DNA of 64,000 bases from a bacterium (GCA_030693325.1 JAUYAV010000019.1:134618-198617), one strand, 5' to 3'; positions 1,712 through 63,178 are shown, counted from the stretch's first letter. The notes: a model not told the origin generated them from the sequence alone. Numbers and translations are program-made.

Positions 1712-1825
1712 TATTTTTCTCTATATTTATCTTTTTTATCAACATTTATCTTATGGTCAAACAGATAAAAATAGAGATAATAATAGATAAACATAGATAA
1801 AATTAAGAAATAAAAATAATTAACC

Positions 1826-4423: not shown

Positions 4424-4461
4424 TACTATTGTAATTCCACGATCGTGGAATTACAATAGTA
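4424..4461. repeat. 38-bp perfect palindrome TACTATTGTAATTCCACGATCGTGGAATTACAATAGTA (copy 1 of 3)
   Basis: Identical copies at ~55180 and ~62817; here it sits just upstream of the grpE promoter. Confidence 0.9.
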
Positions 4462-15753: not shown

Positions 15754-16515
15754 ATGAGAAAAGCAAAACATCGGAATGGTGTGCGATATTCTCTATGGGT
15801 AAAAGAAAAGACAGTCGCGTTACGGCAGGAGGGAAAAACTCATCGTGAGATTGTGAAAGAATTGGGCATTAGTCTCGGCTCTGCTGATTTATGGACGAAG
15901 GGGATAGCGTTGTCGCGCGAACAGAAAATTGCGATACAAAGAAGGCGTAATAAGCATATCTTTACGCCCAAAGAAAGAAAATTAATATCAGAGAGATTGA
16001 GGCCATTTCAATATCAATTGCAATATCGCAATGAAGATCTGATTGATAAAATAAGAAAATTTTATGCGGAAAACGGGAGAATTCCTCTCAAGCGCGAGTT
16101 TAATTCCCTCAGAATTTTTAGAGAACGTTTTGGTAGCTGGAATAATGCAATTAAATTAGCCGGATTTGAACCAAATCAAGTTATATTCTCAAAGAAATTC
16201 ATCGCTAAAGACGGACATATTTGTGATTCATTTGCGGAAAAAATCGTAGATGATTGGTTATCCTACTACCGCATTAAACATGAGAGAAACTTTCCTTATG
16301 AAAACACAAAAATGACCGCTGATTTTAAGACGGGCAATTTTTTGATAGAATATTTTGGCCTTGCCGGAGAAATAAAAGTTTATGATCAATTAATCAAAAA
16401 GAAAAGAATTTTAGCCAGAGATAGAAAAATGAGCCTTATTGAAATTTATCCCAAAAATTTATTTTCAAAAGATTATAAAACTTTTTTAAGAAAAATATTC
16501 AAACCGCTATCTTAG
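15754..16515 (+). CDS. Hypothetical protein with an N-terminal HTH, an HNH-endonuclease-associated repeat (GSWNNAIKLAGF) and a possible C-terminal nuclease-like domain
   Basis: REIVKELGIS HTH; FRERFGSWNNAIKLAGFEP matches the HNH-associated repeat; adjacent to tRNA-Pro. Confidence 0.4.
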   Translation: MRKAKHRNGVRYSLWVKEKTVALRQEGKTHREIVKELGISLGSADLWTKGIALSREQKIAIQRRRNKHIFTPKERKLISERLRPFQYQLQYRNEDLIDKIRKFYAENGRIPLKREFNSLRIFRERFGSWNNAIKLAGFEPNQVIFSKKFIAKDGHICDSFAEKIVDDWLSYYRIKHERNFPYENTKMTADFKTGNFLIEYFGLAGEIKVYDQLIKKKRILARDRKMSLIEIYPKNLFSKDYKTFLRKIFKPLS

Positions 16516-17404: not shown

Positions 17405-17412
17405 CAAAAGGG

Positions 17413-17551
17413 TTGACCCCGTTAGAAGCCTGACGAATCCTAAATTAAGCAACAATCAACAAAGTCCTGTTTAAAATAAAAATTTAATTCAATCTAGAAA
17501 CAGAAAAATTTAATAAATTTTTCTGTTTTAGGGCTTCTAACGGGGTTGACA
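17413..17551. repeat. Family-A palindromic MITE-like element, copy 1 (TIR ACCCCGTTAGAAGCC…GGCTTCTAACGGGGT). Its right end carries a TTGACA -35 box for rpsL.
   Basis: 15-bp terminal inverted repeats and internal hairpin acagaaaaattt…aaatttttctgt; homologous copies at ~22583 and ~58841. Confidence 0.85.
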
Positions 17552-17573
17552 ATCCTTTTGATTCCAGTATTAT
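17546..17573 (+). promoter_or_regulatory. Putative promoter of the rpsL-rpsG-fusA operon (TTGACA-N16-TATTAT)
   Basis: The -35 lies inside the right terminus of the family-A element. Confidence 0.5.
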
Positions 17574-17633
17574 TTAGAAATTATCTGCCAGAGACGGATT
17601 TGTCTTCGGCGGAAAGATTAAAATTTTAGCGAT

Positions 17634-18053: not shown

Positions 18054-18519
18054 AAAACAAATTTATAAAAACAGAAAATTGCGCCAGCCCGATATTAAAT
18101 TCAACAGTTTAGTTGTTGGCCGATTTATCAATTATTTGATGTTTGAAGGGAAAAAATCTTTAGCGGAGAAAATAGTTTATCAGGCCTTTGAACAAATAGA
18201 GAAAACAACCAAAGAAGACCCGATGAAAGTTTTTGAAAAGGCCTTGGAAAATGTCAGTCCGCTGGTGGCTGTGGCCTCCCGGAGAGTCGGAGGCGCTAAT
18301 TATCAGGTGCCGATGGAAGTGAGGCCGGAAAGAAAATTCTTCCTGGCTGGTCATTGGATTATCGCGGCCGCCCGAGCGCGGAAAGGAAGAACCATGGTTG
18401 AAAACTTGGCGGAAGAAATTATCGCCGCTTCCAAAAACGAAGGAACGGCCGTTAAAAAGAAACAGGACATGCATCGAGTAGCGGAAGCTAACCGAGCGTT
18501 CGCCCATTTTGCGAGATAA
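18046..18519 (+). CDS. rpsG: 30S ribosomal protein S7
   Basis: S7 family, 157 aa. Confidence 0.95.
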
Positions 18520-18521
18520 AA

Positions 18522-18575
18522 GTAATTACTGTAATTACAGTAATTACAGCAATTACAGCAATTACCGTAATTACT
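18522..18575. repeat. Six tandem 9-bp repeats GTAATTACN in the rpsG–fusA spacer
   Basis: gtaattact gtaattaca gtaattaca gcaattaca gcaattacc gtaattact. Confidence 0.9.
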
Positions 18576-18584
18576 ATTTTTTTT

Positions 18585-20711
18585 ATGCGTCAATATCCTT
18601 TAGAAAAATATCGTGATATCGGCATCATTGCCCACATTGATGCTGGGAAAACAACCGTTTCCGAACGGATTCTTTTTTACACCGGAATTTCCCATAAAAT
18701 CGGCGAGGTTCATACCGGCGATACCGTTATGGACTGGATGGAGCAGGAAAGAGAAAGAGGAATTACGATTACGGCGGCGGCCACGACTTGCTACTGGACC
18801 CCGACTTACGGCGCCCCGCTGAGCGGGGTAGATAGCCACGCTGAGCGTGGCGGCGACGAATACAGAATCAATATTATTGACACTCCGGGCCATATTGATT
18901 TTACCGTTGAAGTTCAGCGTTCACTGAGGGTGCTTGACGGCGGAGTGGTTGTTTTTGACGGCGTGGCGGGAGTGGAGCCGCAGTCGGAAACGGTCTGGCG
19001 TCAGGCGGACAAATACAAAGTGCCGCGGATTTGTTTTGTGAACAAGCTTGACAGGATGGGAGCTGATTTTGAAAAAACTTTACGGTCCATCAGAGAGCGC
19101 TTGCACCCGAAACCGGCAGTGCTTCAGTGGCCTATCGGCCTTGAAGAAAAATTTGAAGGCGTTATTGATTTGTTAAAACGGCAGGCCTTTTATTTTGAAG
19201 GGGATCATGGTGAAAAAATAATTGCTAAAGAAATCCCGGAAAATTTTAAAAAAACGGCTGAAGAAAAAAGAGAAAAATTAGTGGAGATGATTGCCGAAAC
19301 CGATGACAATTTATTACATCGCTATCTTGAAGGCCAGGAAATCAGCCAAGAGGATTTGAAAAAGACGCTAAGAGTTGCCTCCTTAAAAGGAGAATTAATT
19401 CCTGTGCTTTGCGGCAGCGCTTTGAAAAATAAAGGCGTTCAGCTTCTCTTGGACGCGGTTGTTGATTATTTGCCTTCGCCGCTTGATTTGCCGCCGGTAA
19501 AAGGCATTAACCCGGATAATCAAAAAGAAGAAGAAAGGTCAGCTAAAGACGGGCAGCCGTTTGCCGCTCTGGCTTTTAAAATCGCAACCGATCCGTTTGT
19601 GGGCTCGCTGACTTTTTTCCGGGTTTATTCCGGGGTGCTTCAAAAAGGGACTTATGTTTTAAACGTTTCCAAAAATTCTCAGGAAAGAATCGGCCGGATT
19701 TTGCGAATGCACGCCAATCACCGGGAAGAAGTGGATGAAGTTTGCGCGGGCGACCTTGGGGCTTTTGTGGGTTTAAAAAACACCACGACCGGAGATACTC
19801 TTTGCGACCCCGAGCACCCGATTATTTTGGAAAAAATTGTTTTCCCCGAGCCGGTCATTTCTATTCGGATTGAACCGAAAACCAAAGTTGACCAGGAAAA
19901 AATGTCTATGGCTTTGCATAGGCTTTTAGAGGAAGATCCGACTTTCAAAGTGATTGGCGACCCCGATACCGGCGAAACTATTATTTGGGGGATGGGGGAG
20001 CTTCATTTGGAAATTATTGTTGACCGGATGAAACGGGAATTCAGCGTTGAATGCAGTGTCGGCCGGCCTCAAGTGGCTTACAAGGAAACCATAGTTGGAA
20101 CGGCTGAAGCCGAAGGCAAATACATTCGCCAATCCGGCGGTCGCGGTCAATACGGTCATGTCTTTTTGAGAGTGGAACCCTTGGAACGAGGGAAGGGCTT
20201 TGAATTTGTTAATGCTATTAAAGGAGGCACTATTCCCTCGGAATTTATTCCGGCCGCGGAAAAAGGAGTTAAAGAAGCGATGGACAAAGGCGTTTTGGCC
20301 GGCTATCCTTTTGTTGACACCAAAGTCACGCTTTATGACGGTTCTTACCACGATGTTGATTCTTCGGAAGCGGCTTTCAAAATCGCCGGGTCTATCGCTT
20401 TCCAGGAAGCGGTAAAAAGAGCCAAAATGGTTTTACTGGAGCCGATGATGAAAGTTCAGGTGATTACCCCGCCGAATTTCTTGGGCGATGTCACTGGCGA
20501 CCTTAACGCCCGCCGGGGCAAGATTGAGGCCATGACCGAAAGAATTGGAATTAATGTCATTGACGTGAAAGTTCCTTTGTCGGAAATGTTCGGTTATGCC
20601 ACTAATATAAGGTCAATGACCCAGGGCCGCGGCAGTTTCACGATGGAATTTAACAGCTATGAAGAAGTGCCCAATAATATTACTCAGCGGATTGCCGAGG
20701 GCAAAAAATAA
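18585..20711 (+). CDS. fusA: Elongation factor G. It carries a ~12-aa insertion, encoded by the GC-rich element, just before the [11 protein letters not shown]3 motif.
   Basis: [14 protein letters not shown] and full EF-G domains. Confidence 0.97.
18810..18855. repeat. GC-rich double-hairpin element inside fusA, in reverse orientation relative to the copy at 10498
   Basis: ggcgcc-ccgctgagcgggg-tagata-gccacgctgagcgtggc-ggcg encodes [18 protein letters not shown]. Confidence 0.85.
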
Positions 20712-20719
20712 AAAGGCGC

Positions 20720-20886
20720 GGGGTTGACCCCCACACCAATTAAGTTTTTGTCCATCTAAATTTTCAAAGAAAATTTAGATGGACTAGATTTATCCAAATA
20801 AAATTTTTCATTGTTTTGCTCAGATTTTCTTTCTAAGAAAATTATCCAGTAATATTAAACTTGATTGGTGTGGGGGTTGACATAAA
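20720..20886. repeat. Family-B palindromic element (TIR GGTTGACCCCCACACCAAT…ATTGGTGTGGGGGTTGAC) between fusA and tuf
   Basis: 19-bp inverted termini and an internal perfect hairpin gtccatctaaatttt…aaaatttagatggac. Confidence 0.8.
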
Positions 20887-20903
20887 AAAAAATTCACTAT
20901 AAA
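20877..20903 (+). promoter_or_regulatory. Putative tuf promoter (TTGACA-N15-TATAAA) formed by the right end of the family-B element
   Basis: Hexamers read directly; 50 nt upstream of tuf. Confidence 0.45.
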
Positions 20904-20955
20904 CTAAACAAGTCGTTTTATTATTAAAAAATCAAAATAAAAATTTAAATTAAAT

Positions 20956-22548: not shown

Positions 22549-22585
22549 CAAAACTGCCGAGGCTAAACCTGGGCAGTTTTGATTT
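22549..22585 (+). terminator. Hairpin plus T-run after rpsJ (aaaactgccgagg…cctgggcagttttgattt)
   Basis: ~13-bp stem with one mismatch followed by TTTTGATTT; a terminator inside the S10 operon is unusual. Confidence 0.5.
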
Positions 22586-22708
22586 ACCCCGTTAGAAGTC
22601 ATGACGAATTCCAAGCTAAATAATTATTAACGGGAATGGAAATTTAATTTATTTTCCAAAAACAGAAAAAATTTTAAAATTTTTTCTGGCCAAGACTTCT
22701 AACGGGGT
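22583..22708. repeat. Family-A palindromic element, copy 2, inserted between rpsJ and rplC
   Basis: CCCCGTTAGAAGTC…GACTTCTAACGGGG with the same internal acagaaaaa/tttttctg hairpin. Confidence 0.85.
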
Positions 22709-22719
22709 TTAAAACAAAT

Positions 22720-23169
22720 ATGAGTTTAATAACAGGAAAAAAATTACAAATGAGCCAGATTTTCAAAGACGGAAAAGTAATTCCGGTTACCCCGATTAAG
22801 GTTGCCGATATTTCGGTTTTTAATGAAGGCGAATTGCTCAAGATAACCGGAATAAGCCGCGGTATAGGATTTCAGGGCGTAGTCAAACGCTGGGGTTTCC
22901 ATGGCGGACCGAAAAGTCATGGGGGTAAACACAGCTTGCGGGCTCCAGGCTCAATCGGCTCAACCGCGCCTCAGCGGGTGTTAAAAGGCAGGAAAATGGC
23001 CGGTCGAACCGGCGGCCGCCAAAAAACCATCGGAAATCTTGAAGTAGTTTCTTTAAATAAAGAAAATGCCGTTTTAATGGTGAAAGGAGCGATACCCGGC
23101 TATAAAAATTCAGAAATTAAAATTCAGAAAGACGCCAGTCATAAAGCATTAAAAAAGAAATTACGGTAA
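22720..23169 (+). CDS. rplC: 50S ribosomal protein L3 (short, 149 aa)
   Basis: L3 N-terminal KKLQMSQIF…GFQGVVKRWGF. Confidence 0.9.
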   Translation: MSLITGKKLQMSQIFKDGKVIPVTPIKVADISVFNEGELLKITGISRGIGFQGVVKRWGFHGGPKSHGGKHSLRAPGSIGSTAPQRVLKGRKMAGRTGGRQKTIGNLEVVSLNKENAVLMVKGAIPGYKNSEIKIQKDASHKALKKKLR

Positions 23170-23199
23170 TTGCCGTAATTACTGTAATTACAGTAATTT
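23170..23199. repeat. Three tandem TTAC[AT]GTAA 9-mers in the rplC–rplD spacer
   Basis: ttgccgtaattactgtaattacagtaattta. Confidence 0.85.
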
Positions 23200-23202
23200 A
23201 AT

Positions 23203-23841
23203 ATGAAAGCGGATTTATTCAATCAAAAAAACGAAAAAATTGGAACAGTGGAATTACCCGAAGCCGTTTTTGGCGTTAAATTTAATTCGGACTTGGTTCA
23301 TCAAGTATTGACGGTCCAGGTCGCTAATCGCCGAAGAACCTTAGCCGACACAAAAGACAGAGGCGAAGTCAGAGGCGGCGGTAAGAAGCCCTGGAAGCAA
23401 AAAGGCACGGGCCGGTCAAGGCAGGGTTCAAGCCGTTCACCTTTATGGAAAGGCGGCGGGGTCACTTTTGGTCCTCAAAAAGAAAGAAATTTTTCCAGAA
23501 GTATAAATCAAAAAATGAAGCAATTGGCGATTTTCGGAATTTTTTCCAAAAAATTAGCCGATCAGGAAATTAAAATTATTGACACTTTGAATTTGGAAGA
23601 CCGCAAGACCAAAAAATTAGCCGAGCTGTTGAAAAAATTTATTACGCCCAAGGAAAGCGTTTTATTGATTCCCGCCAACGAAAACAAAATTATTTATTTG
23701 GCCGGGCGAAATTTGCCCAAAGTCGGCGTTATGAGTCCCGAGTCGCTCAATGTTTACGATTTGCTGAAATATAGAAAAATTCTTTTGGACCAAACCGCCG
23801 TTGAATCAATAGTTAAACATTATAAATTAATCAGTAATTAA
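23203..23841 (+). CDS. rplD: 50S ribosomal protein L4
   Basis: L4 family; position in the operon. Confidence 0.93.
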   Translation: MKADLFNQKNEKIGTVELPEAVFGVKFNSDLVHQVLTVQVANRRRTLADTKDRGEVRGGGKKPWKQKGTGRSRQGSSRSPLWKGGGVTFGPQKERNFSRSINQKMKQLAIFGIFSKKLADQEIKIIDTLNLEDRKTKKLAELLKKFITPKESVLLIPANENKIIYLAGRNLPKVGVMSPESLNVYDLLKYRKILLDQTAVESIVKHYKLISN

Positions 23842-23859
23842 GTAATTACAGTAATTACA
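23842..23859. repeat. Two tandem GTAATTACA 9-mers in the rplD–rplW spacer
   Basis: gtaattacagtaattaca. Confidence 0.8.
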
Positions 23860-23867
23860 AAAAAACT

Positions 23868-24143
23868 ATGAGAATGATAATTAAAAAACCAATAATCAGC
23901 GAGAAGACAATGGACTTGAGTAATATCAACAAGTATGTTTTTTCGGTTGACCGGGAAGCCAGTTCTTGCGAAATCAAGAAAGGGATAGAATCTATTTATA
24001 AAGTGAAAGTGGAGTCGGTGAATATTATCAACAAAAAAGGAAAAGTTAAAAGATTGGGCCGCAGTCTCGGCCGCCGGCCGGCCTCTAAAAAAGCTATTGT
24101 TACCATAAAAAAGGGACAGGTGATTGATGTTTTGCCAAAATAA
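23868..24143 (+). CDS. rplW: 50S ribosomal protein L23
   Basis: L23 family; order in the operon. Confidence 0.9.
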   Translation: MRMIIKKPIISEKTMDLSNINKYVFSVDREASSCEIKKGIESIYKVKVESVNIINKKGKVKRLGRSLGRRPASKKAIVTIKKGQVIDVLPK

Positions 24144-24147
24144 AAAA

Positions 24148-24891
24148 ATGAGCGCCAAATTAATCAAAAAAATAAAAAATTCAGCCGGGAGAAATTCCTC
24201 GGGAAGAATAACGGTTCGCCATCAGGGCGGCGGCCATAAGCAATTATACCGCTTGGTTGATTTTAAGCAGGACAAATTTGGCATTGTTGGCCGGATTGAA
24301 TCACTGGAATACGATCCTTATCGTAGCGGTCTTATCGCTTTAGTGGTTTATACCGACGGCGAAAGGCGGTATATTTTGGCATCTTTGGAAATGAAAGTGG
24401 GCGATAAAATTATCTCTTCAGCCGATGCTCCTTTAAAGCCGGGTAATCGCACTCAATTGAAACGTATGCCGGTGGGAATTTTCGTGTATAATGTTGAAAT
24501 CTTCCCCGGTAAGGGCGGACAATTAGCTCGCTCAGCGGGTTTAGTTGCCCAGGTTCTGGCCAATGAAGACGGATATACTCAACTGAAATTAGCTTCCGGA
24601 GAAGTCAGAAAATTTTTATGGGATTGTTATGCTACTATTGGCCGGGTTTCTTACCCGGAGCATAATTTGGAAGTAATCGGGAAAGCCGGCCGTTCGCGCT
24701 GGCTGGGTATCAGACCGACAGTCAGGGGTACTGCAATGAATCCCCGCGATCATCCGTACGGAGGCGGCGAAGGCCGTCAACCTCGGGGAACTCGCCGGCC
24801 AAAAACCAAATGGGGAAAAATTACCGGCGGTCATAGAACCCGGAATAAAAAGAAATGGTCAAATAAATTAATAATAAAACGGAGAAAATAA
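24148..24891 (+). CDS. rplB: 50S ribosomal protein L2 (the start is more likely MSAKLIKK than the track's 24124)
   Basis: GRNSSGRITVRHQGGGHK; C-terminal GGGEGRQPRG. Confidence 0.95.
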   Translation: MSAKLIKKIKNSAGRNSSGRITVRHQGGGHKQLYRLVDFKQDKFGIVGRIESLEYDPYRSGLIALVVYTDGERRYILASLEMKVGDKIISSADAPLKPGNRTQLKRMPVGIFVYNVEIFPGKGGQLARSAGLVAQVLANEDGYTQLKLASGEVRKFLWDCYATIGRVSYPEHNLEVIGKAGRSRWLGIRPTVRGTAMNPRDHPYGGGEGRQPRGTRRPKTKWGKITGGHRTRNKKKWSNKLIIKRRK

Positions 24892-24898
24892 ATTTTTT

Positions 24899-25222
24899 AT
24901 GTCAAGAAGCAGTAAAAAAGGCCCATACGTTTACCAGAAGTTATTGGAAAAAATAGCTAAATTAAAGCCGGGCGATTTGACGCCGATTAAAACCTGGGCC
25001 AGAGATTCGGAAATTTCTCCGGAAATGGTTGATTATACTTTTGGCGTTCATAACGGCAAAAATTTCATAACCGTGAGGATAAGCGAGGAAATGGTTGGTC
25101 ATCGGTTGGGTGAATTCTCGCTGACCCGAAAATTCGTCAAGCACGGCGGTAAGATTCAAAAAGAATTGGAACAGAAGAAAGAGCAGGATCAAGCCAAAGC
25201 GTCAACGCCGCCTGCCAAATAA
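24899..25222 (+). CDS. rpsS: 30S ribosomal protein S19
   Basis: S19 family. Confidence 0.93.
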   Translation: MSRSSKKGPYVYQKLLEKIAKLKPGDLTPIKTWARDSEISPEMVDYTFGVHNGKNFITVRISEEMVGHRLGEFSLTRKFVKHGGKIQKELEQKKEQDQAKASTPPAK

Positions 25223-38147: not shown

Positions 38148-38219
38148 GGGTGTGTAGTTCAGTGGTAGAACGCTGTCCTGATAAGACAGAGGTCGGAGGT
38201 TCGATCCCTCCCACACCCA
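38148..38219 (+). tRNA. tRNA-Ile (anticodon GAT)
   Basis: Manual fold: acceptor GGGUGUG/CACACCC; anticodon loop CUGAUAA; T-loop GGTTCGATCC; no encoded CCA. Confidence 0.75.
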
Positions 38220-38261
38220 CTGGAAGAGTTCATTAATAATTCAGTTAAAAAGGAGGAAAGG

Positions 38262-38867
38262 ATGAAACGGATTAGAGCTTATTTTTACGCGGGAATAATT
38301 TTAGTTTTGCCTTTGGGGTTATTGCTGTTTATTTTATCCTGTTTGGTAAAGATTTTTAAAAATATTTCTTCGGCAATCGGTTTAAAGACGGTCATTTTCA
38401 GCTTGGTAGCAAAATTGCCGTTGCCTTCGTTTTTATTGGCAACCGGAGAATGGTTAGAATGGTTGTTGATTGCCGTTAGTATCGCGGCAATTCTGATATT
38501 TTTGGGATGGTTCAGTTCAAAAATAGGGAAAAGAATAATTGAGTTTTTAGAAAGGGCGATTAAAAAAATTCCGCTGATTGGCTCTCTCTATTTTACTTTT
38601 AGAGAAACGGCGAAACTCACTCTTAAAGAAAAAAAGGCCTTTAGGGAGGTAGTCAAGGTGCAAGTTATTGAGGGAATCCAGAGTATCGGGTTTGTGGTCC
38701 AGAGAAAGGATACAAAGGTAGTTGTTTTTATTCCTTTTGTTCCAAATCCCTTAACTGGCATCACGATTATTGTTGATAGTAGTCTGGTTATTCCTACAGG
38801 TTTAAGCGTTGAAGAAGGAATGAGATGGATGATCAGTTTTGGCGCCTCTCCTGATTTATTATCCTGA
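38262..38867 (+). CDS. Membrane protein (DUF502-like)
   Basis: Two N-terminal TM helices plus a soluble domain; strong SD AAGGAGGA. Confidence 0.4.
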   Translation: MKRIRAYFYAGIILVLPLGLLLFILSCLVKIFKNISSAIGLKTVIFSLVAKLPLPSFLLATGEWLEWLLIAVSIAAILIFLGWFSSKIGKRIIEFLERAIKKIPLIGSLYFTFRETAKLTLKEKKAFREVVKVQVIEGIQSIGFVVQRKDTKVVVFIPFVPNPLTGITIIVDSSLVIPTGLSVEEGMRWMISFGASPDLLS

Positions 38868-38932
38868 TATATCAAGCGAATCCCGCCAGTTCATGATGGA
38901 CTGGTGGGATTTTTTATTTTAAAATTATATCT

Positions 38933-39415
38933 ATGATTCTTTTCGCCCACGTTGTTTTCGCCGATGCCGTCAGTTCCGCGGGAAATTTTCCTTGGCCGAT
39001 GGCTTTTTTGTTCGGTTTAATATCCCATCATTTGTTGGATTTCATTCCTCATCTTGACGCCGGTTGTGTCTGGCCGGAAAAAGACAGAGATGCCGGCACA
39101 ATGCCCAAAGCAGTTGTAATTTTTATTGCCGCTGACGCTTTATTGACATTGGGGTTTTTAATTTGGTGCGCTTTTTTTCTGAAAATAAATTGGGCTATTT
39201 TGTTCTGGGCGAGTTTTGGCGCGGCTTTGCCGGATTTAATCGTCACCGGCTTTCCTTTTTTCATTCCTAAAATTAAATCTTGGCCATGGGTGAAAAAATA
39301 TGAAAAATTCCACTATAGCCTTTTTGACCACTTAGGCATTTCCACTAATTGGATTTTTGGCATTTTTAGCACTATATTGATAATCGGAGTTTCTTTTTGG
39401 TTGTTGCTGAAATAA
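38933..39415 (+). CDS. Hypothetical polytopic membrane protein
   Basis: Four or five hydrophobic helices. Confidence 0.4.
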   Translation: MILFAHVVFADAVSSAGNFPWPMAFLFGLISHHLLDFIPHLDAGCVWPEKDRDAGTMPKAVVIFIAADALLTLGFLIWCAFFLKINWAILFWASFGAALPDLIVTGFPFFIPKIKSWPWVKKYEKFHYSLFDHLGISTNWIFGIFSTILIIGVSFWLLLK

Positions 39416-39419
39416 ACAG

Positions 39420-39491
39420 GGGCCCGTAGTTCAGTGGTAGAACGCCTCATTTGCAATGAGGAGATCAGCGGTTCGATCCCGCTCGGGTCCA
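39420..39491 (+). tRNA. tRNA-Ala (anticodon TGC) with the G3:U70 identity pair
   Basis: Manual fold: GGGCCCG…CGGGUCC acceptor with G3·U70; anticodon loop UUUGCAA. Confidence 0.8.
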
Positions 39492-39602
39492 CAGGAACAA
39501 AGATTATTTCTTCCCAATTTTATGCTGTGGATAACTTGCTTTGGACTTTCTATTTACTTTCTAGTATACTGAAGCTGATAGTGAAAAGTTAATCCACACA
39601 TT

Positions 39603-43088: not shown

Positions 43089-44216
43089 ATGGAGCCGTTA
43101 GCATCAAAAATAAGACCGAAAATTTTGGAAGAATTTGTCGGTCAGGAGCATTTAGTCGGAGAAGGAAAGCCTTTTAATATAGCTATAAAACAAAAGCATT
43201 TGTTTTCTTTTATTTTATGGGGGCCTCCTGGAACCGGAAAAACTACTTTGGCCAAGATATATGCCAATAGTCTGAACGCAAAAATTTATGAATTGTCCGC
43301 GGTTTCGGCCGGAAAAGCGGATATCAGAAAAATACTAGAAGAAGACTCGGACGGAGTTCCTAAAGTTTTATTTTTAGACGAAATACATCGCTTTAATAAA
43401 TCCCAGCAGGACTTTCTGCTTCCTTATGTTGAAAGAGGGGAGATAATTTTGATTGGCGCCACTACCGAAAATCCGAGTTTTGAAGTGATATCGGCTTTGC
43501 TTTCCCGATGCCGAGTTTTCGTTTTAAATGAACTTTCAGAAAATAACATAAAGGCCATTATTAAAAGAACCGGAATGAAAATGGATGAAGCGGCGGAAGA
43601 TTGGCTGGTAAATGCGGCCAATGGCGATGCCAGACAAGTAATAACTTTGTTGGAAAACACCAGCGAACTTTATAAAAAGATTACGGTGGAAAATTTAAAA
43701 AACGTTCTCCAATCAAAGTTTTTGAGATACGACAAAGTCGGGGAAGAACATTACAACACTATTTCCGCCTTTATCAAAAGCATGAGAGCGAGCCAGCCTG
43801 ATGCGGCTTTGTATTATTTGGCTCGGATGATTGATTCCGGCGAAGACCCAAAATTTATAGCCAGAAGAATGGTTATTTTTGCTTCCGAGGATATTGGTTT
43901 GGCTCAGCCCACAGCCTTAGTAGTGGCTAATGATGTTTTTCGGGCCGTGGAAATAATCGGTCTGCCCGAATGCGGTATTAATTTGGCTCACGGAGTAGCT
44001 CATCTGTGCCAGTGTAAAAAAGACAGAAGAGCCCATGATGCTTATATGGAAGCGATGGAAGACGTAAAAAATTTCGGCAATCTTCCTATCCCTTTAAGTT
44101 TGCGGAATCCTGAGACAAAATTAATGAAAGATTTAAATTACGGCAAAGGATACGAAAAATATTCCAAGGAATCTTTTCTGCCCGAAAAATTAAAAGGAAA
44201 AAAATATTTAAAATAA
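43089..44216 (+). CDS. rarA: Replication-associated recombination protein RarA/MgsA (AAA+)
   Basis: WGPPGTGKTTLA; FLDEIHRFNKSQQD; MgsA C-terminal helical domain. Confidence 0.9.
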   Translation: MEPLASKIRPKILEEFVGQEHLVGEGKPFNIAIKQKHLFSFILWGPPGTGKTTLAKIYANSLNAKIYELSAVSAGKADIRKILEEDSDGVPKVLFLDEIHRFNKSQQDFLLPYVERGEIILIGATTENPSFEVISALLSRCRVFVLNELSENNIKAIIKRTGMKMDEAAEDWLVNAANGDARQVITLLENTSELYKKITVENLKNVLQSKFLRYDKVGEEHYNTISAFIKSMRASQPDAALYYLARMIDSGEDPKFIARRMVIFASEDIGLAQPTALVVANDVFRAVEIIGLPECGINLAHGVAHLCQCKKDRRAHDAYMEAMEDVKNFGNLPIPLSLRNPETKLMKDLNYGKGYEKYSKESFLPEKLKGKKYLK

Positions 44217-47200
44217 TGCCCCTGAATCTGGAAAAACTTAATAAAGAGCAAAAAGAAGCCGTGGTTCATGGCCAGGGGCCGCTTTTGATTGTGGCCGGAG
44301 CCGGAACCGGCAAAACGACGGTTATCACCCAGAGAATAGTTAATTTAATTGAAAAGGAGAAAGTTAAACCTGAAGAAATATTGGCCGTCACTTTTACCGA
44401 AAAGGCGGCCGCGGAAATGGAAGAAAGGGTTGATATTCTTTTGCCTTATGGCTATGTGGATTTGTGGATTTCCACTTTCCATTCTTTCTGCGAAAGGGTC
44501 TTGCGCGATTACGCTTTGGATATCGGCTTGCCGGCGGATTTTAAGATTTTAGACAACACGGCCGGCTGGCTTTTGGTTTATCGCAATCTGGAAAAATTCA
44601 ATCTCGATTATTACAAACCCCTGGGGAATCCGACCAAATTTATCCAGGCCCTGATTTCTCATTTTTCCCATTGCAAAGACCAGGCGATTTATCCCGAAGA
44701 TTATTTAAAATACGCCGAAAAGCTGAAAACCCGGGATGACGCGCCGGAAGAAAATGAAACCGAGAGGATAAAAGAAGTGGCGAACGCTTACCATGTTTAT
44801 CAGCGTTTGCTTTTGGAGAACAGTTCTCTGGATTTTGGCGATTTGATAAATTATTGTTTGAAATTGTTTCAGAAAAGGCCGCTGATTTTGAAAAAATATC
44901 GGGAAAAATTCAAATACATTTTAGTTGACGAATTTCAGGACACCAACTGGGCGCAATACGAGCTTATAAAAATCTTAGCGGCGCCGAAAAATAATCTGAC
45001 CGTCTGTGCCGACGATGACCAATGTTTGCCGGGCAATTCAAAAATAGAGATTTTTGAGAACGATAAAATCAAAATAAAGGAAATTAAAAAAATTGAAATA
45101 GGCGATAAAGCATTAACAGCCGTAGGAAAAGGTCATATAGGGGTTGCTAATGTGAATAATGTTTTCGTCAAAAACAAGAGGGCAAAGATATTAACCGTTA
45201 AAACAGAAGGCGGCTATTCAGTAAGCGTGACAGATAATCATAAAATGTTTTGCTGTGTTCCAAGAACTGCTCGGCAGAATTATCATTATGTTTATTTGAT
45301 GTTTAGAAAAAATTTGGGGTGGAGGATAGGGGTAACTGATGATTTAATTTTGCGGCTTAGGATAGAGCGTTCGGCAGATAAAATTTTGGCAATAAGGGCC
45401 TTTAACACTGATTCTGAAGCGAGATATCACGAAACATTGTGGTCGTTGAAGTACGGCATACCCACTTGTTGTTTTAAAAGCAGGGAAGGCATCGTTATCA
45501 AAGAAAATGAGTTGGCTAAATTATATAAGGAAATTAATACCGAAGATAATATACGGAAATTAGCTCAAGATTTAAATATTGACTTAGATTCGCCCCATTA
45601 TTGTCTAGATGCCGTTAACAGGGGAAGAAGCGTCAGGATAATCATCAATTTGCAAATGTGCTACAGAAATTACCGAAGCAAGGAACACGTCAGAAGCGAG
45701 AAAACTCTGCTTTTGAATGGCTTGACAAGGCACAGGCTTTATTTGGAAACGTCAGACAAGCAAACAATTAAGAAGCTAAAAACAGCAGGATATATTCTTT
45801 ATAAAGCGAGGAAAGGAATGAAATTAAACATAGAAGGAGGCGATGTAAAAGATCTTGAAGGAAAAGCAAGAGCGATAGAAAAAATTACAGGCGGATTCAT
45901 AGAATATAAATTTAATGTTGCGAGCAAATACAGCAAGCCGTCAGGCACGGCACGAAATTATATGTCTTTGATTATGCCCGCAAAAAATTTAGTTTTAGGA
46001 CACTATCTTCCGGTAAAAAAAGGCGCTGAGATAATTTACGATAAAATAATTTCAATTAAAGAAGTTGATAAAAAAATAAAAGTATATGATTTGGAAATCG
46101 ACAAAACCCATAATTTTATAGCCAACGGAATAGTGGTCCACAATTCTGTTTATAGGTGGAGAGGGGCATCTTATAGCAACATAGTCCAATTCAATAAAGA
46201 TTTCCCGAAAGCCGAGCAAATTTCTTTGGTTAAAAATTACCGGTCCGGCCAGAATATTTTGGATTTGGCTTATAAATTCATAAAAGCCAATAATCCCGAC
46301 CGCCTTGAATACGTAAATAAAATAAACAAGGAATTAATCGCCCAGGAAAAAGGTGAAGGCAAAATAGAGCATATTTTGGCGAAGAACCTGGAAGAAGAAG
46401 TTGATAAAACAATAAAGAAGATCTTAGGGATTCTTAAAAAAGACAAAGACGCCGGTTATAACGATTTTGCGATTTTAGTCAGAGCCAATGACGCGGCCAA
46501 TCCTTTTATTAAGGCCCTGGAGCGCGCGGGCTTGCCTTATCAATTTTTGGCTTCAAGAGGGCTTTATTCAAAGCCGGTTATTTTGGACGTAATCTCATAT
46601 TTCAAACTTTTGGATAATTACCACGAGAGCCCGGCGGTTTACCGGATCTTGAATATGCCATTTTTGGAAATCCCGCCCGCGGATATTATGAAGCTTACTC
46701 AATACAGCCACAAAAAAACAAAGTCGCTTTATGAGGCGATGGAAGAGCTTCCTCTAATTCCGGGAATTTCTCCGGAAGTTCAGGAAAAAATCCTTTTCGT
46801 TTTGAGCTTGATTAAAAAACACGCCATTTTTGCCAAAGAAAAATCGGTCTCGGAAATAATGATTGCATTTCTTAAAGAGTCGGGATATATAAAATATTTA
46901 ACGAAAAAAGACGACAAAGAACAGTTTGATTTACTCAATCAATTCCATAAAAAAGTGAAGAATTTTGAGAGTGCGGCAATAGAGCCGACTTTAGGCAATT
47001 TTATGCGGGAAATAAATCTTGAGATAGAATCCGGCGAAGAAGGAAAGCTTGAATTTGACCCCGAGCAAGGCCCGGACATGATAAAAATAATGACTATCCA
47101 CGGAGCTAAGGGCTTGGAATTCAAATATGTTTTTTTGGTTAATATGGTGGATAAAAGATTTCCGACAATGGAAAGAAAGGATTTAATTGAGCTACCCGAA

Positions 47201-48298
47201 GATTTAATCAAAGACATAAAGCCAACTGGGGATGTTCATTTGCAGGAAGAAAGGCGCATTTGCTATGTGGCCATTACCAGAGCCAAGAAAGATATTTATT
47301 TCACTTCGGCTGAAGATTATGGCGGGGTGAGAAAAAAGAAATTGTCTCGCTTTCTGATTGAAATGGGATACCAGGAAAAAACTGAAAAACCGAAAAACTT
47401 AAAAACTCAAAACGAAATGCTCGCGGAGAAACCGATTTCGGTCGGGACAAAAAACAAGCCGATGCCGGATTATCTGCCGAAACATTTTTCGTATTCGCAA
47501 TTGGCGGCTTTTGACAAGTGTCCGTTGCAGTATAAATTCGCTTTTATTCTGAAGGTTCCGACCAGAGGCAAGGCCGTGTTTTCTTTCGGGAAGACGATGC
47601 ATAATACTTTTTATGAATTTTTAAAATACGCCAACGAAGGCAGCGCGAGCAATCAAACAAATTTGTTCGGGTTTGAAGAAAAAACAATTAAGGCCGGTAA
47701 AAAAGCCCTGTCTGCCGGCAGGCATGAAAAATCTTTAGATTTAGACGATTTAACGGAAATTTATGAGAAAAACTGGATTGACGAATGGTATGAGAGTAAA
47801 AAACAAAAAGAGGATTATCGCAAGCTCGGCAGGAAAATAATTAAAGATTTTTATGATGAATTTGTAAAAAATCCGCCGAAAGTTTTAAAAATCAATAATG
47901 CCTTTGCTTTGGAAATGCCGTTTAACCTGAAAATAGGGGGATATGCCTTATACGGCGTGGTGGACAGAATTGATGAAGAGGATGGTGGCGTGACCATCAT
48001 TGATTACAAAACAGGAAATTCTAAAGACAAGCTGTATCCGGGCGATAAAGAACAATTGTTGATTTATCAGATAGCGGCTGAAGAGATATTCAAACTAAAG
48101 CCCCAAAAATTGGCTTATCATTATTTAACCGACGGCAAGAAAGCGTCTTTTCTCGGAACGGAAAAAGAGAAAGAACAGCTGAAAGAAAAAATAATCCAAG
48201 AGATTGAAGAAATAAAAGGCAGTGATTTCAAGGCGAAGCCGAGTCAGCTTTGCGCTTTCTGCGATTTCAAGGATATTTGCGATTCCGCTCAGAGATAG
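44216..48298 (+). CDS. UvrD/PcrA-family helicase fused to a C-terminal RecB/Cas4-like PD-(D/E)xK nuclease (AddA-like). It is interrupted by an intein in helicase motif III.
   Basis: AGAGTGKTT; DEFQDTN; …CADDDQ|C…HN|SVYRWRGAS; C-terminal IIDYKTG and CAFCDFKDICD. Confidence 0.9.
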   Translation: MPLNLEKLNKEQKEAVVHGQGPLLIVAGAGTGKTTVITQRIVNLIEKEKVKPEEILAVTFTEKAAAEMEERVDILLPYGYVDLWISTFHSFCERVLRDYALDIGLPADFKILDNTAGWLLVYRNLEKFNLDYYKPLGNPTKFIQALISHFSHCKDQAIYPEDYLKYAEKLKTRDDAPEENETERIKEVANAYHVYQRLLLENSSLDFGDLINYCLKLFQKRPLILKKYREKFKYILVDEFQDTNWAQYELIKILAAPKNNLTVCADDDQCLPGNSKIEIFENDKIKIKEIKKIEIGDKALTAVGKGHIGVANVNNVFVKNKRAKILTVKTEGGYSVSVTDNHKMFCCVPRTARQNYHYVYLMFRKNLGWRIGVTDDLILRLRIERSADKILAIRAFNTDSEARYHETLWSLKYGIPTCCFKSREGIVIKENELAKLYKEINTEDNIRKLAQDLNIDLDSPHYCLDAVNRGRSVRIIINLQMCYRNYRSKEHVRSEKTLLLNGLTRHRLYLETSDKQTIKKLKTAGYILYKARKGMKLNIEGGDVKDLEGKARAIEKITGGFIEYKFNVASKYSKPSGTARNYMSLIMPAKNLVLGHYLPVKKGAEIIYDKIISIKEVDKKIKVYDLEIDKTHNFIANGIVVHNSVYRWRGASYSNIVQFNKDFPKAEQISLVKNYRSGQNILDLAYKFIKANNPDRLEYVNKINKELIAQEKGEGKIEHILAKNLEEEVDKTIKKILGILKKDKDAGYNDFAILVRANDAANPFIKALERAGLPYQFLASRGLYSKPVILDVISYFKLLDNYHESPAVYRILNMPFLEIPPADIMKLTQYSHKKTKSLYEAMEELPLIPGISPEVQEKILFVLSLIKKHAIFAKEKSVSEIMIAFLKESGYIKYLTKKDDKEQFDLLNQFHKKVKNFESAAIEPTLGNFMREINLEIESGEEGKLEFDPEQGPDMIKIMTIHGAKGLEFKYVFLVNMVDKRFPTMERKDLIELPEDLIKDIKPTGDVHLQEERRICYVAITRAKKDIYFTSAEDYGGVRKKKLSRFLIEMGYQEKTEKPKNLKTQNEMLAEKPISVGTKNKPMPDYLPKHFSYSQLAAFDKCPLQYKFAFILKVPTRGKAVFSFGKTMHNTFYEFLKYANEGSASNQTNLFGFEEKTIKAGKKALSAGRHEKSLDLDDLTEIYEKNWIDEWYESKKQKEDYRKLGRKIIKDFYDEFVKNPPKVLKINNAFALEMPFNLKIGGYALYGVVDRIDEEDGGVTIIDYKTGNSKDKLYPGDKEQLLIYQIAAEEIFKLKPQKLAYHYLTDGKKASFLGTEKEKEQLKEKIIQEIEEIKGSDFKAKPSQLCAFCDFKDICDSAQR
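45023..46144 (+). mobile_element. Intein (~374 aa) with a putative, degenerate homing-endonuclease core
   Basis: Cys1 (CLPGNSKI); block B TDNHKM; C-terminal VVHN followed by Ser+1; the extein motif III DDDQ/SVYRWRGA is restored on excision. Confidence 0.8.
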
Positions 48299-55179: not shown

Positions 55180-55217
55180 TACTATTGTAATTCCACGATC
55201 GTGGAATTACAATAGTA
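55180..55217. repeat. 38-bp perfect palindrome, copy 2, between the convergent gatB and miaA genes; it overlaps the last miaA codons
   Basis: Identical to 4424-4461. Confidence 0.9.
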
Positions 55218-58840: not shown

Positions 58841-58973
58841 CACCCCGTTAGAAGTCTGGTTCATGTTTAATAATGATTATTATTTTAATTAAAAATTCAT
58901 ATTTGATTAACCTATCTGTTATGACAGAAAAATTTCTATAGAAATTTTTCTGTTCAAGACTTCTAATGGGGTT
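58841..58973. repeat. Family-A palindromic element, copy 3, filling the gap between the dnaE stop and the thrS start
   Basis: CCCCGTTAGAAGTC…GACTTCTAATGGGG with the internal acagaaaaattt…aaatttttctgt hairpin. Confidence 0.85.
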
Positions 58974-62783: not shown

Positions 62784-62816
62784 TCCACAACACAATTTAA
62801 ATTACTAAATTCAATT

Positions 62817-62854
62817 ACTATTGTAATTCCACGATCGTGGAATTACAATAGTAA
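62817..62854. repeat. 38-bp perfect palindrome, copy 3
   Basis: Identical to 4424-4461. Confidence 0.9.
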
Positions 62855-62967
62855 AATTGGAGTTGAACTTCTTTTGCCGGGTTTGACCTTTTTTTAGAAA
62901 TATCATAAGATTAATTATTATTAATTGTATTTAGTGTGAGTAATTTGTAGTTAGGAATAAATTTTTC

Positions 62968-62996
62968 GTTTCTAATTACTAATTACTCAATTACTA
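62968..62996. repeat. Four tandem TAATTAC 7-mers upstream of rpmF
   Basis: taattactaattactcaattactaattac. Confidence 0.8.
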
Positions 62997-63028
62997 ATTA
63001 CTTAAATTTTGAGCAAAGCGAAAAATTT

Positions 63029-63178
63029 ATGGGTGGCGTACCAACAAAACATCATTCAAAATCAAAAGTCGGCCGGAGACGGTCTCAACTCTTTTTAAAG
63101 AAAGGCAAATTTGCGGTTTGTCCGGTTTGCGGCGGCCCGAAATTGTCTCATTGTTCTTGTCCGCAGTGCAAGAAATAA
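63029..63178 (+). CDS. rpmF: 50S ribosomal protein L32 (49 aa, zinc ribbon)
   Basis: Manual translation MGGVPTKHHSKSKVGRRRSQ…CPVCGGPKLSHCSCPQCKK; shorter than the ORF-track cutoff. Confidence 0.75.
   Translation: MGGVPTKHHSKSKVGRRRSQLFLKKGKFAVCPVCGGPKLSHCSCPQCKK

Follow-up and report, generated by a model that had tools for sequence, protein, structure and literature searches.

Short imperfect palindromes such as REP/BIME, Correia and RUP elements and MITEs occur in many extragenic or intercistronic copies in bacterial genomes, vary between strains and, as hairpins in mRNA, can stabilise upstream cistrons. Direct repeats of the heptamer TAACTGA have been described from marine Beggiatoaceae, some Cyanobacteria and some Bacteroidetes (MacGregor 2015, PMC4679880). 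They consist of 2-6 head-to-tail copies in forward orientation just 5' of start codons, where a Shine-Dalgarno sequence rarely coexists with them, and 169 sets were counted in the BOGUAY genome (PMC4679880). In ribosomal-protein operons they are found at fusA, L3, S4, S1 and pnp; their patchy distribution suggests lateral spread, and they have no known function (PMC4679880). A third type of array, TIGR, is composed of two alternating 8-12-nt repeats with 9-nt variable spacers in 5-15 units and lies beside a Nop-domain Tas gene (PMC12045711).

Four arrays of 'TAATTACAG'-type repeats were detected close 5' of fusA, rplD, rplW and rpmF in the window, i.e. the whole 64-kb stretch of DNA analysed here (Table 1). 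The host, a bacterium with a tiny genome, belongs to the Patescibacteria/Paceibacterota, as placed via L4 homologues. Reading of the sequence, Tandem Repeats Finder and Pfam (flanking genes S7/EF-G, L3/L4, L4/L23 and L32) agreed with the initial annotation, which had put repeats at or near these four sites. Tandem Repeats Finder returned period 9 with 6.0, 4.4 and 3.2 copies for the first three arrays (score 80 for array 1) and period 7 with 4.3 copies for the fourth. The distances to the ATG amount to 10, 2, 9 and 27 nt for arrays 1-4. Arrays 2 and 3 extend into the coding sequences of rplC and rplD at their 3' ends, so that both stop codons come from the repeats; the encoded C-termini are ...KKLR* for L3 and ...LISN* for L4, the latter being three residues longer than in relatives. 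An assembly artefact was ruled out, as the arrays are shorter than typical k-mers and recur in the independent assemblies L042 (a Logan contig), L090 and L117; moreover, an array-less allele differs from the window in flanking bases as well. Exact-protein look-ups with S7, S12, L32 and EF-G for further strains of the same species gave only the same Logan contig or nothing.

Table 1 Repeat arrays, related hairpins and further elements of the window and its relatives
Feature	Position	Strand	Description
pilB-pilC spacer element	1712..1825	+	(TTTATCT)-type repeats left, (AGATAAA)-type right; fold z -2.2
Palindrome TGTAATTCCACGATCGTGGAATTACA, three exact copies	4430-4455, 55186-55211, 62822-62847		0 expected; third site: full perfect palindrome of 40 nt, 62815-62854 (one copy checked)
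Gene with homing-endonuclease-associated repeat (PF18780)	15754-16515		253-aa protein; ~1.1 kb 5' of the str operon
Structured element ACCCCGTTAGAAG...CTTCTAACGGGGT	17405-17633, 22585-22713, 58865-58972 (reverse strand)		5' of rpsL; in the 216-nt rpsJ-rplC spacer (fold z -9.5); partial copy near dnaE
Array 1, rpsG-fusA spacer	18522..18574	+	six 9-nt units, palindromic core G(T/C)AATTAC; order GTAATTAC-T-GTAATTAC-A-GTAATTAC-A-GCAATTAC-A-GCAATTAC-C-GTAATTAC; rpsG stop 5' of it at 18517-19
Linker TATTTTTTTT, array 1 to fusA ATG	18575..18584	+	10 nt, U-rich, single-stranded; fusA ATG at 18585
fusA-tuf spacer	20712-20955		244 nt; -68 kcal/mol, z -8.8
Promoter-like TTGACA-17-TAAACT	20877-20905		in the fusA-tuf spacer
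rplC (L3)	22720-23169		149 aa
Array 2, rplC-rplD	23157..23200	+	~4.5 units; order GAAATTAC-G-GTAATTGC-C-GTAATTAC-T-GTAATTAC-A-GTAATTTA; rplC stop (23167-69) inside second unit; rplD ATG at 23203
Array 3, rplD-rplW	23834..23858	+	degenerate unit, then two perfect units; order GTAATTAA-GTAATTAC-A-GTAATTAC; rplD stop (23839-41) within GTAATTAA; then linker AAAAAAACT, rplW ATG at 23868
tRNA-Ile(GAT) and tRNA-Ala(TGC)	38148-39492		DUF502 gene and 160-aa ORF between
UvrD/AddA-type helicase-nuclease with intein	44216-48298		1360 aa; Intein_splicing/Hint, residues ~264-643
Promoter-like TTGACC-17-TAAGAT	62883-62911		just 5' of rpmF hairpin
5' arm of rpmF-leader hairpin (..GAGTAATTTGTAGTTAGGAA)	62931..62957	+	complementary to array 4
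Array 4, rpmF leader	62973..63001	+	four (T/C)AATTAC units, period 7-8: TAATTAC, TAATTAC, (T)CAATTAC, TAATTAC; rpmF ATG at 63029
L113 rpsL-rpsG hairpin			(TACGAAA)n/(TTTCGTA)n; -30 kcal/mol, z -6.3
L112 rplV-rpsC hairpin			(GACTAAT)n/(ATTAGTC)n; -25 kcal/mol, z -4.9
L113 rpsQ-rplN hairpin			z -4.5
L112 rpsC-rplP hairpin			z -3.8
L112 rplB-rpsS hairpin			z -2.7

Among described systems the TAACTGA arrays are the closest published analogue, alike in position and context though not of the same family. In both cases a short unit is placed a few nt 5' of starts within ribosomal-protein operons, and a Shine-Dalgarno sequence is rare or missing. However, the unit here is (N)GTAATTAC or TAATTAC, and the 9-mer has a palindromic 8-nt core and folds, which makes orientation undefinable; the host is a member of the Patescibacteria, 3-4 arrays lie within 64 kb, and they show strain-level indels and are grouped with hairpins built from other units. 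A TIGR- or CRISPR-like array was rejected on architecture, as there is one 8-nt repeat with a 1-nt spacer, no variable spacers and ribosomal flanking genes. Literature searches returned only primers and unrelated matches for GTAATTAC alone, no published occurrence of two-unit array strings, and nothing for the combination of CPR, Shine-Dalgarno and tandem repeats.

The 8-bp core of the unit, GTAATTAC, is perfectly palindromic, which makes the arrays self-complementary. This palindromy, with the hairpins that it allows, is the central structural finding and goes beyond the initial annotation, as do the stop codons in arrays 2 and 3 and the inverted repeat at rpmF. Array 1 with its flanks was predicted to form one long A-U-rich hairpin (-19 kcal/mol, z -3.8) with inverted-repeat arms at 18518-18545 and 18551-18578 that are 86% complementary; UAUUUUUUUU (U8) and then the fusA AUG follow. 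Two small hairpins were predicted for array 2 (-13.7 kcal/mol, z -3.2), and the fold of array 3 was weak and not significant (-3.3 kcal/mol, z -0.1). The four TAATTAC 7-mers reported upstream of rpmF are indeed present; they are not stand-alone repeats, however, but constitute the 3' arm of a hairpin, the 5' arm of which lies 30 nt upstream. The fold of this leader (62930-63010) was the strongest of the four (-24.6 kcal/mol, z -6.8; 0 of 200 shuffles folded as well), with 86% complementarity between the arms 62937-62957 and 62969-62989. Altogether, predicted folds beat shuffles for three of the four arrays when partner sequence was included (1, 2 and 4). The stems are roughly 15-30 bp long with few mismatches and almost purely A-U, and an AU-rich unpaired linker of 6-19 nt always remains 5' of the AUG. 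No Rfam family matched at gathering threshold or at E<=1, where only sub-threshold generic hairpin models appeared.

Given the promoter-like site just upstream, the rpmF hairpin is probably located at the 5' end of the rpmF mRNA. The loop of this hairpin (62957-62971) is complementary in 14 of 15 positions to 63016-63030, a stretch ending in the rpmF start codon. Such pairing would permit a pseudoknot or a start-masking alternative as in some ribosomal-protein autoregulatory leaders, and in this A/T-rich sequence it may also have arisen by chance.

Structurally, REP/BIME-type palindromes are the closest analogue; these are likewise extragenic imperfect palindromes with a predicted hairpin, as at arrays 1, 2 and 4. 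They differ in having one 20-40-nt consensus and an associated RAYT transposase, whereas the arms found here are tandem 7-9-nt units that vary between the spacers of relatives. No RAYT or transposase gene was noticed in the subset of window ORFs examined. The arrays also resemble ribosomal-protein autoregulatory leaders (S7 at the str operon, L4 at the S10 operon) in placing structured RNA in or ahead of such operons, but they match no Rfam family, are not conserved, and rpsG-fusA, rplC-rplD and rplD-rplW are not known operator sites.

The folds raise the possibility that the hairpins are selected as structural RNA, which would protect the upstream cistron from 3' exonucleases, offer an RNase III site uncoupling the stabilities of cistrons, or cause partial termination before fusA (hairpin plus U8). 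Structure would count and sequence would not, hence the different repeats in each lineage. Stem length and the small number of mismatches fit this proposal, and so do the U-rich tails, UAUUUUUUUU after array 1 and UUUUAUU after a hairpin in the relative L048. The rpmF hairpin directly follows a promoter-like site, a position where 5' stem-loops stabilise mRNAs, and the predicted array 1 hairpin together with its U-rich linker has a terminator- or attenuator-like geometry. An intrinsic terminator, however, combines a G+C-rich stem with a direct U run, whereas array 1 has a long A-U stem and UAUUUUUUUU, and near-pure A-U stems are poor for termination. The plus-strand terminator scan did not call array 1 because of its AU-rich stem, and arrays 2-4 have no U run. 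The lack of significant structure in array 3 likewise speaks against selection for folding.

Could the arrays act as DNA? They might be operators or sites of nucleoid proteins, with TGTAATT/AATTACA as half-sites, or else what is left behind by a transposon that duplicates 9 bp of its target and has a palindromic hot spot. The unit is palindromic at the DNA level and recurs every 9 bp, and the 26-bp palindrome TGTAATTCCACGATCGTGGAATTACA, present in three exact copies, shares the outer half-sites. Yet 9-bp spacing does not keep phase with the DNA helix, the arrays lie inside operons and not at promoters, they are not conserved, and there is no adjacent transposase; excision footprints, moreover, are not a usual outcome in bacteria. 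Promoter function was rejected, as promoter-like matches were no commoner than in shuffles and none was centred on an array. We regard a DNA-level element as very improbable.

Orthologous loci of relatives were retrieved via L4 homologues, and L090 via a metagenome pattern scan. The near-identical sister strain L043 agrees with the window to 99-100% over 23479-24950 (~1.4 kb). The one exception is the junction between rplD and rplW, at which the window carries an insertion of net 33 nt (array 3) and a few flanking bases are altered. The array-less junction of L043 (stop, 2 nt, ATG) was also found in L044, L046, L048, L113 and L117; judged from these sequences it is the ancestral state and array 3 is derived. 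At the same site L112, the L4 of which is 83% identical, has GTAATCGCGAATTAG (2035-2111), and its L4 likewise carries a 3-residue extension (..VIAN*, where the window has ..LISN*); the sequence possibly represents an insertion that has decayed, or a different one.

A similar comparison for the rplC-rplD spacer gave 33 nt in the window versus 3 nt in L043, L044 and L113, 4 nt in L112, 10 nt in L046 and 0 nt in L048. Array 2 is common to the window, L090 and L117, all of which have the same four units separated by the same bases G, C, T and A; 0-1 substitutions were seen in ~45 nt and no variation in copy number. The L4 proteins of these lineages are only 76-94% identical and the adjacent coding DNA differs by ~10-17%. 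At ~15% divergence ~7 differences would be expected, and a rough Poisson estimate gives P(<=1) ~0.01. Thus, array 2 seems to be either constrained where present or recently spread on short recombination tracts, and the latter would explain how it stayed near-invariant despite its diverged flanks. Between the window and L043, identity drops to 83-92% in 22900-23440 versus 98-100% on both sides, a mosaic pattern which indicates recombination around array 2. An L090-like lineage as the direct donor of the tract was not supported, since similarity peaked only at the array itself.

Like microsatellites, the arrays are made of head-to-tail short units, are gained and lost between close strains and have no conserved position. 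Unlike microsatellites, the array shared by three lineages has a fixed copy number, and the unit is palindromic and reused at several loci. The initial annotation had offered AU-rich enhancers or S1 sites, a repressor operator and spacer microsatellites as interpretations, and only the last agrees with the comparison of genomes; the closest relatives do not have the arrays, and one array is an indel between strains that are 99-100% identical.

The rpsG-fusA junction was different in each lineage. In L044 the genes overlap (TAATG) and no spacer exists, L046 has (TCTAAAT)n, L048 has the palindrome AGCCACTAGTGGCT (-21 kcal/mol, z -4.3), and in L090 and L113 an inserted GC-rich hairpin is accompanied by a duplication of the 5' end of fusA. 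Some hairpin is thus present in this spacer in four of five lineages, each of independent sequence, and selection for structure could operate there. Constraint on folding would also suit array 2, which is conserved where present and in which an A/G difference preserves a U-A or U-G pair. On the other hand, L044 manages without any rpsG-fusA spacer, and the sister strain and most relatives lack arrays in both the rplC-rplD and the rplD-rplW spacer; the orthologous copies, being nearly identical, differ too little to yield a covariation signal. Judging from the predicted folds, the hairpins may serve as stabiliser, processing site or attenuator, but that selection for such RNA accounts for the arrays is in our opinion unlikely, albeit a serious alternative.

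Further oddities were observed around fusA. The first 11 fusA codons are duplicated in L090 (5990-6230, reverse strand) and L113 (2477-2560), where the old start overlaps the rpsG stop and is followed by a ~52-nt GC-rich hairpin insert, a new ATG and a re-coded N-terminus; it looks like an insertion carrying its own replacement 5' end. Downstream of fusA, the spacer to tuf has very strong predicted structure in the window. In L044 this spacer (227 nt) is also strongly structured, and in three other relatives it is short and unstructured.

Hairpins were present at other junctions of the relatives too, with one arm being a 7-9-nt tandem repeat and the other its reverse complement (Table 1). A junction table of six genomes showed that spacer lengths differ at nearly every junction and that the expansions, most of them strongly structured, are placed differently in each genome. 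One element of this kind occurs in the window as well, away from the ribosomal operons, between the pilB and pilC genes (T2SSE, T2SSF). Arrays of a palindromic unit are the extreme form of this architecture, in which left- and right-arm units coincide and the hairpin resembles a plain tandem array. One unit serves three spacers in the window, versus a separate unit per spacer in the relatives.

With moderate confidence, we therefore interpret the arrays as palindromic short tandem repeats, the self-complementary case of fast-turnover, repeat-built hairpin elements in the operon spacers of this Paceibacteria lineage. Sequence comparison shows them as derived insertions that replaced tightly coupled stop/start junctions together with the final codons of rplC and rplD, varying between near-identical strains and patchy among relatives; they thus appear to be young and strain-variable and not a conserved on/off signal for ribosomal genes. 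They probably originated through strand slippage or fold-back synthesis, processes favoured by a unit that is palindromic, and probably spread between lineages by homologous recombination of short tracts. Transcription would yield AU-rich stem-loops between the cistrons of a polycistronic mRNA. A hairpin 5' of an AU-rich start region probably does little harm where most starts have no Shine-Dalgarno sequence, and it would be tolerated as long as the A/U-rich unpaired stretch of 6-19 nt before the AUG is preserved. Any effects on expression would be structural, not sequence-specific, and dispensable, such as shielding the 3' end of the upstream segment, RNase III-type processing or partial attenuation before fusA.

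Several observations do not sit easily with fast-turnover repeats. Three spacers within 5.3 kb share one unit and the fourth element shares the AATTAC core, which pure local slippage does not explain. The near-invariant array 2 in three divergent lineages points to constraint or very recent lateral spread, array 3 barely folds, and the independent hairpins at rpsG-fusA have been mentioned above. The evidence on the source genome covers 64 kb.

Motif counts show that the pattern exceeds chance. TAATTAC occurs 28 times in the window as compared to 10.1 +/- 3.1 in shuffles, none of 100 shuffles reaching 28, and outside the arrays its frequency is close to chance. All eight exact copies of GTAATTAC fall into three spacers, and non-coding DNA makes up only 6.6% of the window. 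Scans for arrays of at least three units gave 41 loci in species-representative genomes, 60 in metagenomes and 1 in viral contigs. Across prokaryotes these were found in coding, convergent and other intergenic contexts; many matches in other phyla are accounted for by GGTAATTAC, which translates to Gly-Asn-Tyr. A coding repeat was rejected for the window, where the arrays sit between Pfam-confirmed genes. Four Patescibacteria matches were intergenic. Three had the architecture of the window (stop, array, A/U linker, ATG), one in atpA-atpG of a Saccharibacteria MAG, one before a pilin-like gene of a Jorgensenbacteria MAG and one following pnp, and the fourth (L007) lay between convergent genes. 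The GTAATTAC arrays of other Patescibacteria fold too (z -4.3 to -4.7).

Metagenome contigs with a GC content of 0.5-0.6 contained many GTAATTAC nonamer arrays, three of them in one contig. They belong to the CXWJ (L061, L064, L067, L068, L072, L074, L077, L078, L081, L098, L105) and WBZQ sets (L050, L065, L070, L076, L080, L082, L084, L086, L093, L094, L100, L102). Often the arrays are bracketed by GTAATTGGG-type and CCCAATTAC-type units, one type to each side, and very long repeat-built hairpins result. L061 encodes SusC/RagA, and at least this contig is thus from Bacteroidota.

The initial annotation had taken the recurrence at four ribosomal loci as an argument for function. This argument is weakened by the pilB-pilC hairpin, by the arrays at atpG, the pilin gene and after pnp and between convergent genes in Patescibacteria, and by the variety of contexts across prokaryotes, which comes close to the random placement irrespective of start codons that it had named as counter-evidence. 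It was also correct in stating that the genes behind the arrays have no Shine-Dalgarno sequence (0 of 4), but the observation carries no weight. A strong Shine-Dalgarno sequence precedes only 5 of 82 ORFs in the window, any 4-mer match 11 of 82, and the usual sequence 5' of starts is simply A/T-rich; the array-preceded genes are typical in this respect because absence is the norm in this genome. Arrays as a substitute for the missing Shine-Dalgarno sequence were rejected for the same reason, as ~85-95% of the ORFs are without one and ~70 such genes are array-free. In addition, almost any intergenic insertion in a compact, mostly co-directional genome falls within ~30 nt of a start codon. A textbook AAGGAGGTG stands 5' of a few genes, which means that a canonical anti-Shine-Dalgarno exists. 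The 64-kb window contains no rRNA gene.

These data also bear on the idea originally favoured, that (GUAAUUACN)n is read in a sequence-specific manner by the ribosome (S1) or by a Csp-, CsrA- or TRAP-like oligomer, recruiting or blocking ribosomes at starts without Shine-Dalgarno sequence, as proposed for the TAACTGA arrays. One unit at three or four loci 5' of translation genes would be expected from such a site, as would the invariance of the rplC-rplD array across lineages and the recurrence of GTAATTAC in other classes of Patescibacteria, where it precedes atpG, a pilin gene and the gene that follows pnp. The TAACTGA arrays offer a parallel, also standing before fusA, L3, S4, S1 and pnp and rarely together with a Shine-Dalgarno sequence (PMC4679880). 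Against a binding site, however, stand the presence or absence at strain level, the empty orthologous sites of most relatives and the unrelated units that others have at the same sites. The rpmF element has the AATTAC core in only one hairpin arm, the motif is paired and not single-stranded in the predicted folds, its distance to the AUG varies from 2 to 27 nt, and both the convergent position in L007 and the many contexts elsewhere are difficult to reconcile with a role at starts. A sequence-specific operator or enhancer is therefore unlikely, and we judge recognition of the unit by the ribosome or such an oligomer quite improbable as the explanation of the arrays.

Several further elements of the window were recorded (Table 1). 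The copies of TGTAATTCCACGATCGTGGAATTACA occupy one divergent and one convergent site and one terminator-to-promoter spacer; the outer half-sites TGTAATT/AATTACA resemble the array unit, and the sequence could be a REP-like element or a protein-binding site. The structured element ACCCCGTTAGAAG...CTTCTAACGGGGT looks MITE-like, its sole Rfam match, MtlS, being sub-threshold. Relatives have a different family, CCAAACCTTTACCC...GGGTGCTCAAT, in rpsJ-rplC, rplF-rplR and rpsQ-rplN. L3 is as short as in relatives (129-149 aa), and its Pfam match covers part of the L3 model. A tRNA-Ile/tRNA-Ala pair usually sits in the rRNA spacer; here the two genes occur without an rRNA gene. The window also encodes an intein-containing helicase-nuclease and, upstream of the str operon, a protein with a homing-endonuclease-associated repeat.

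A broader version of a functional reading would hold that repeat-built hairpins are a selected, repeatedly acquired class of intercistronic RNA in Shine-Dalgarno-poor bacteria. Spreading as short recombination tracts, they would set cistron-specific mRNA stability, processing or ribosome loading in operons for ribosomal proteins and other highly expressed genes, and the class would span the Patescibacteria studied here and the TAACTGA- and GTAATTAC-type arrays in Bacteroidota, Cyanobacteria and Beggiatoaceae. We consider this rather unlikely.

If the arrays are indeed fast-turnover repeats, they advise caution: a repeat beside a start codon in a compact, Shine-Dalgarno-poor genome is not evidence of regulation. 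The ribosomal-protein operons of CPR bacteria would then be surprisingly permissive to hairpin insertions, with junctions that are fixed in most bacteria varying here between strains. Should the hairpins prove functional, they would represent a simple, sequence-independent structural device tuning expression in essential operons of uncultured ultra-small bacteria, and would provide a second, independent example for testing the unexplained TAACTGA arrays. The array-plus and array-minus alleles at strain level constitute a natural experiment for metatranscriptomics.
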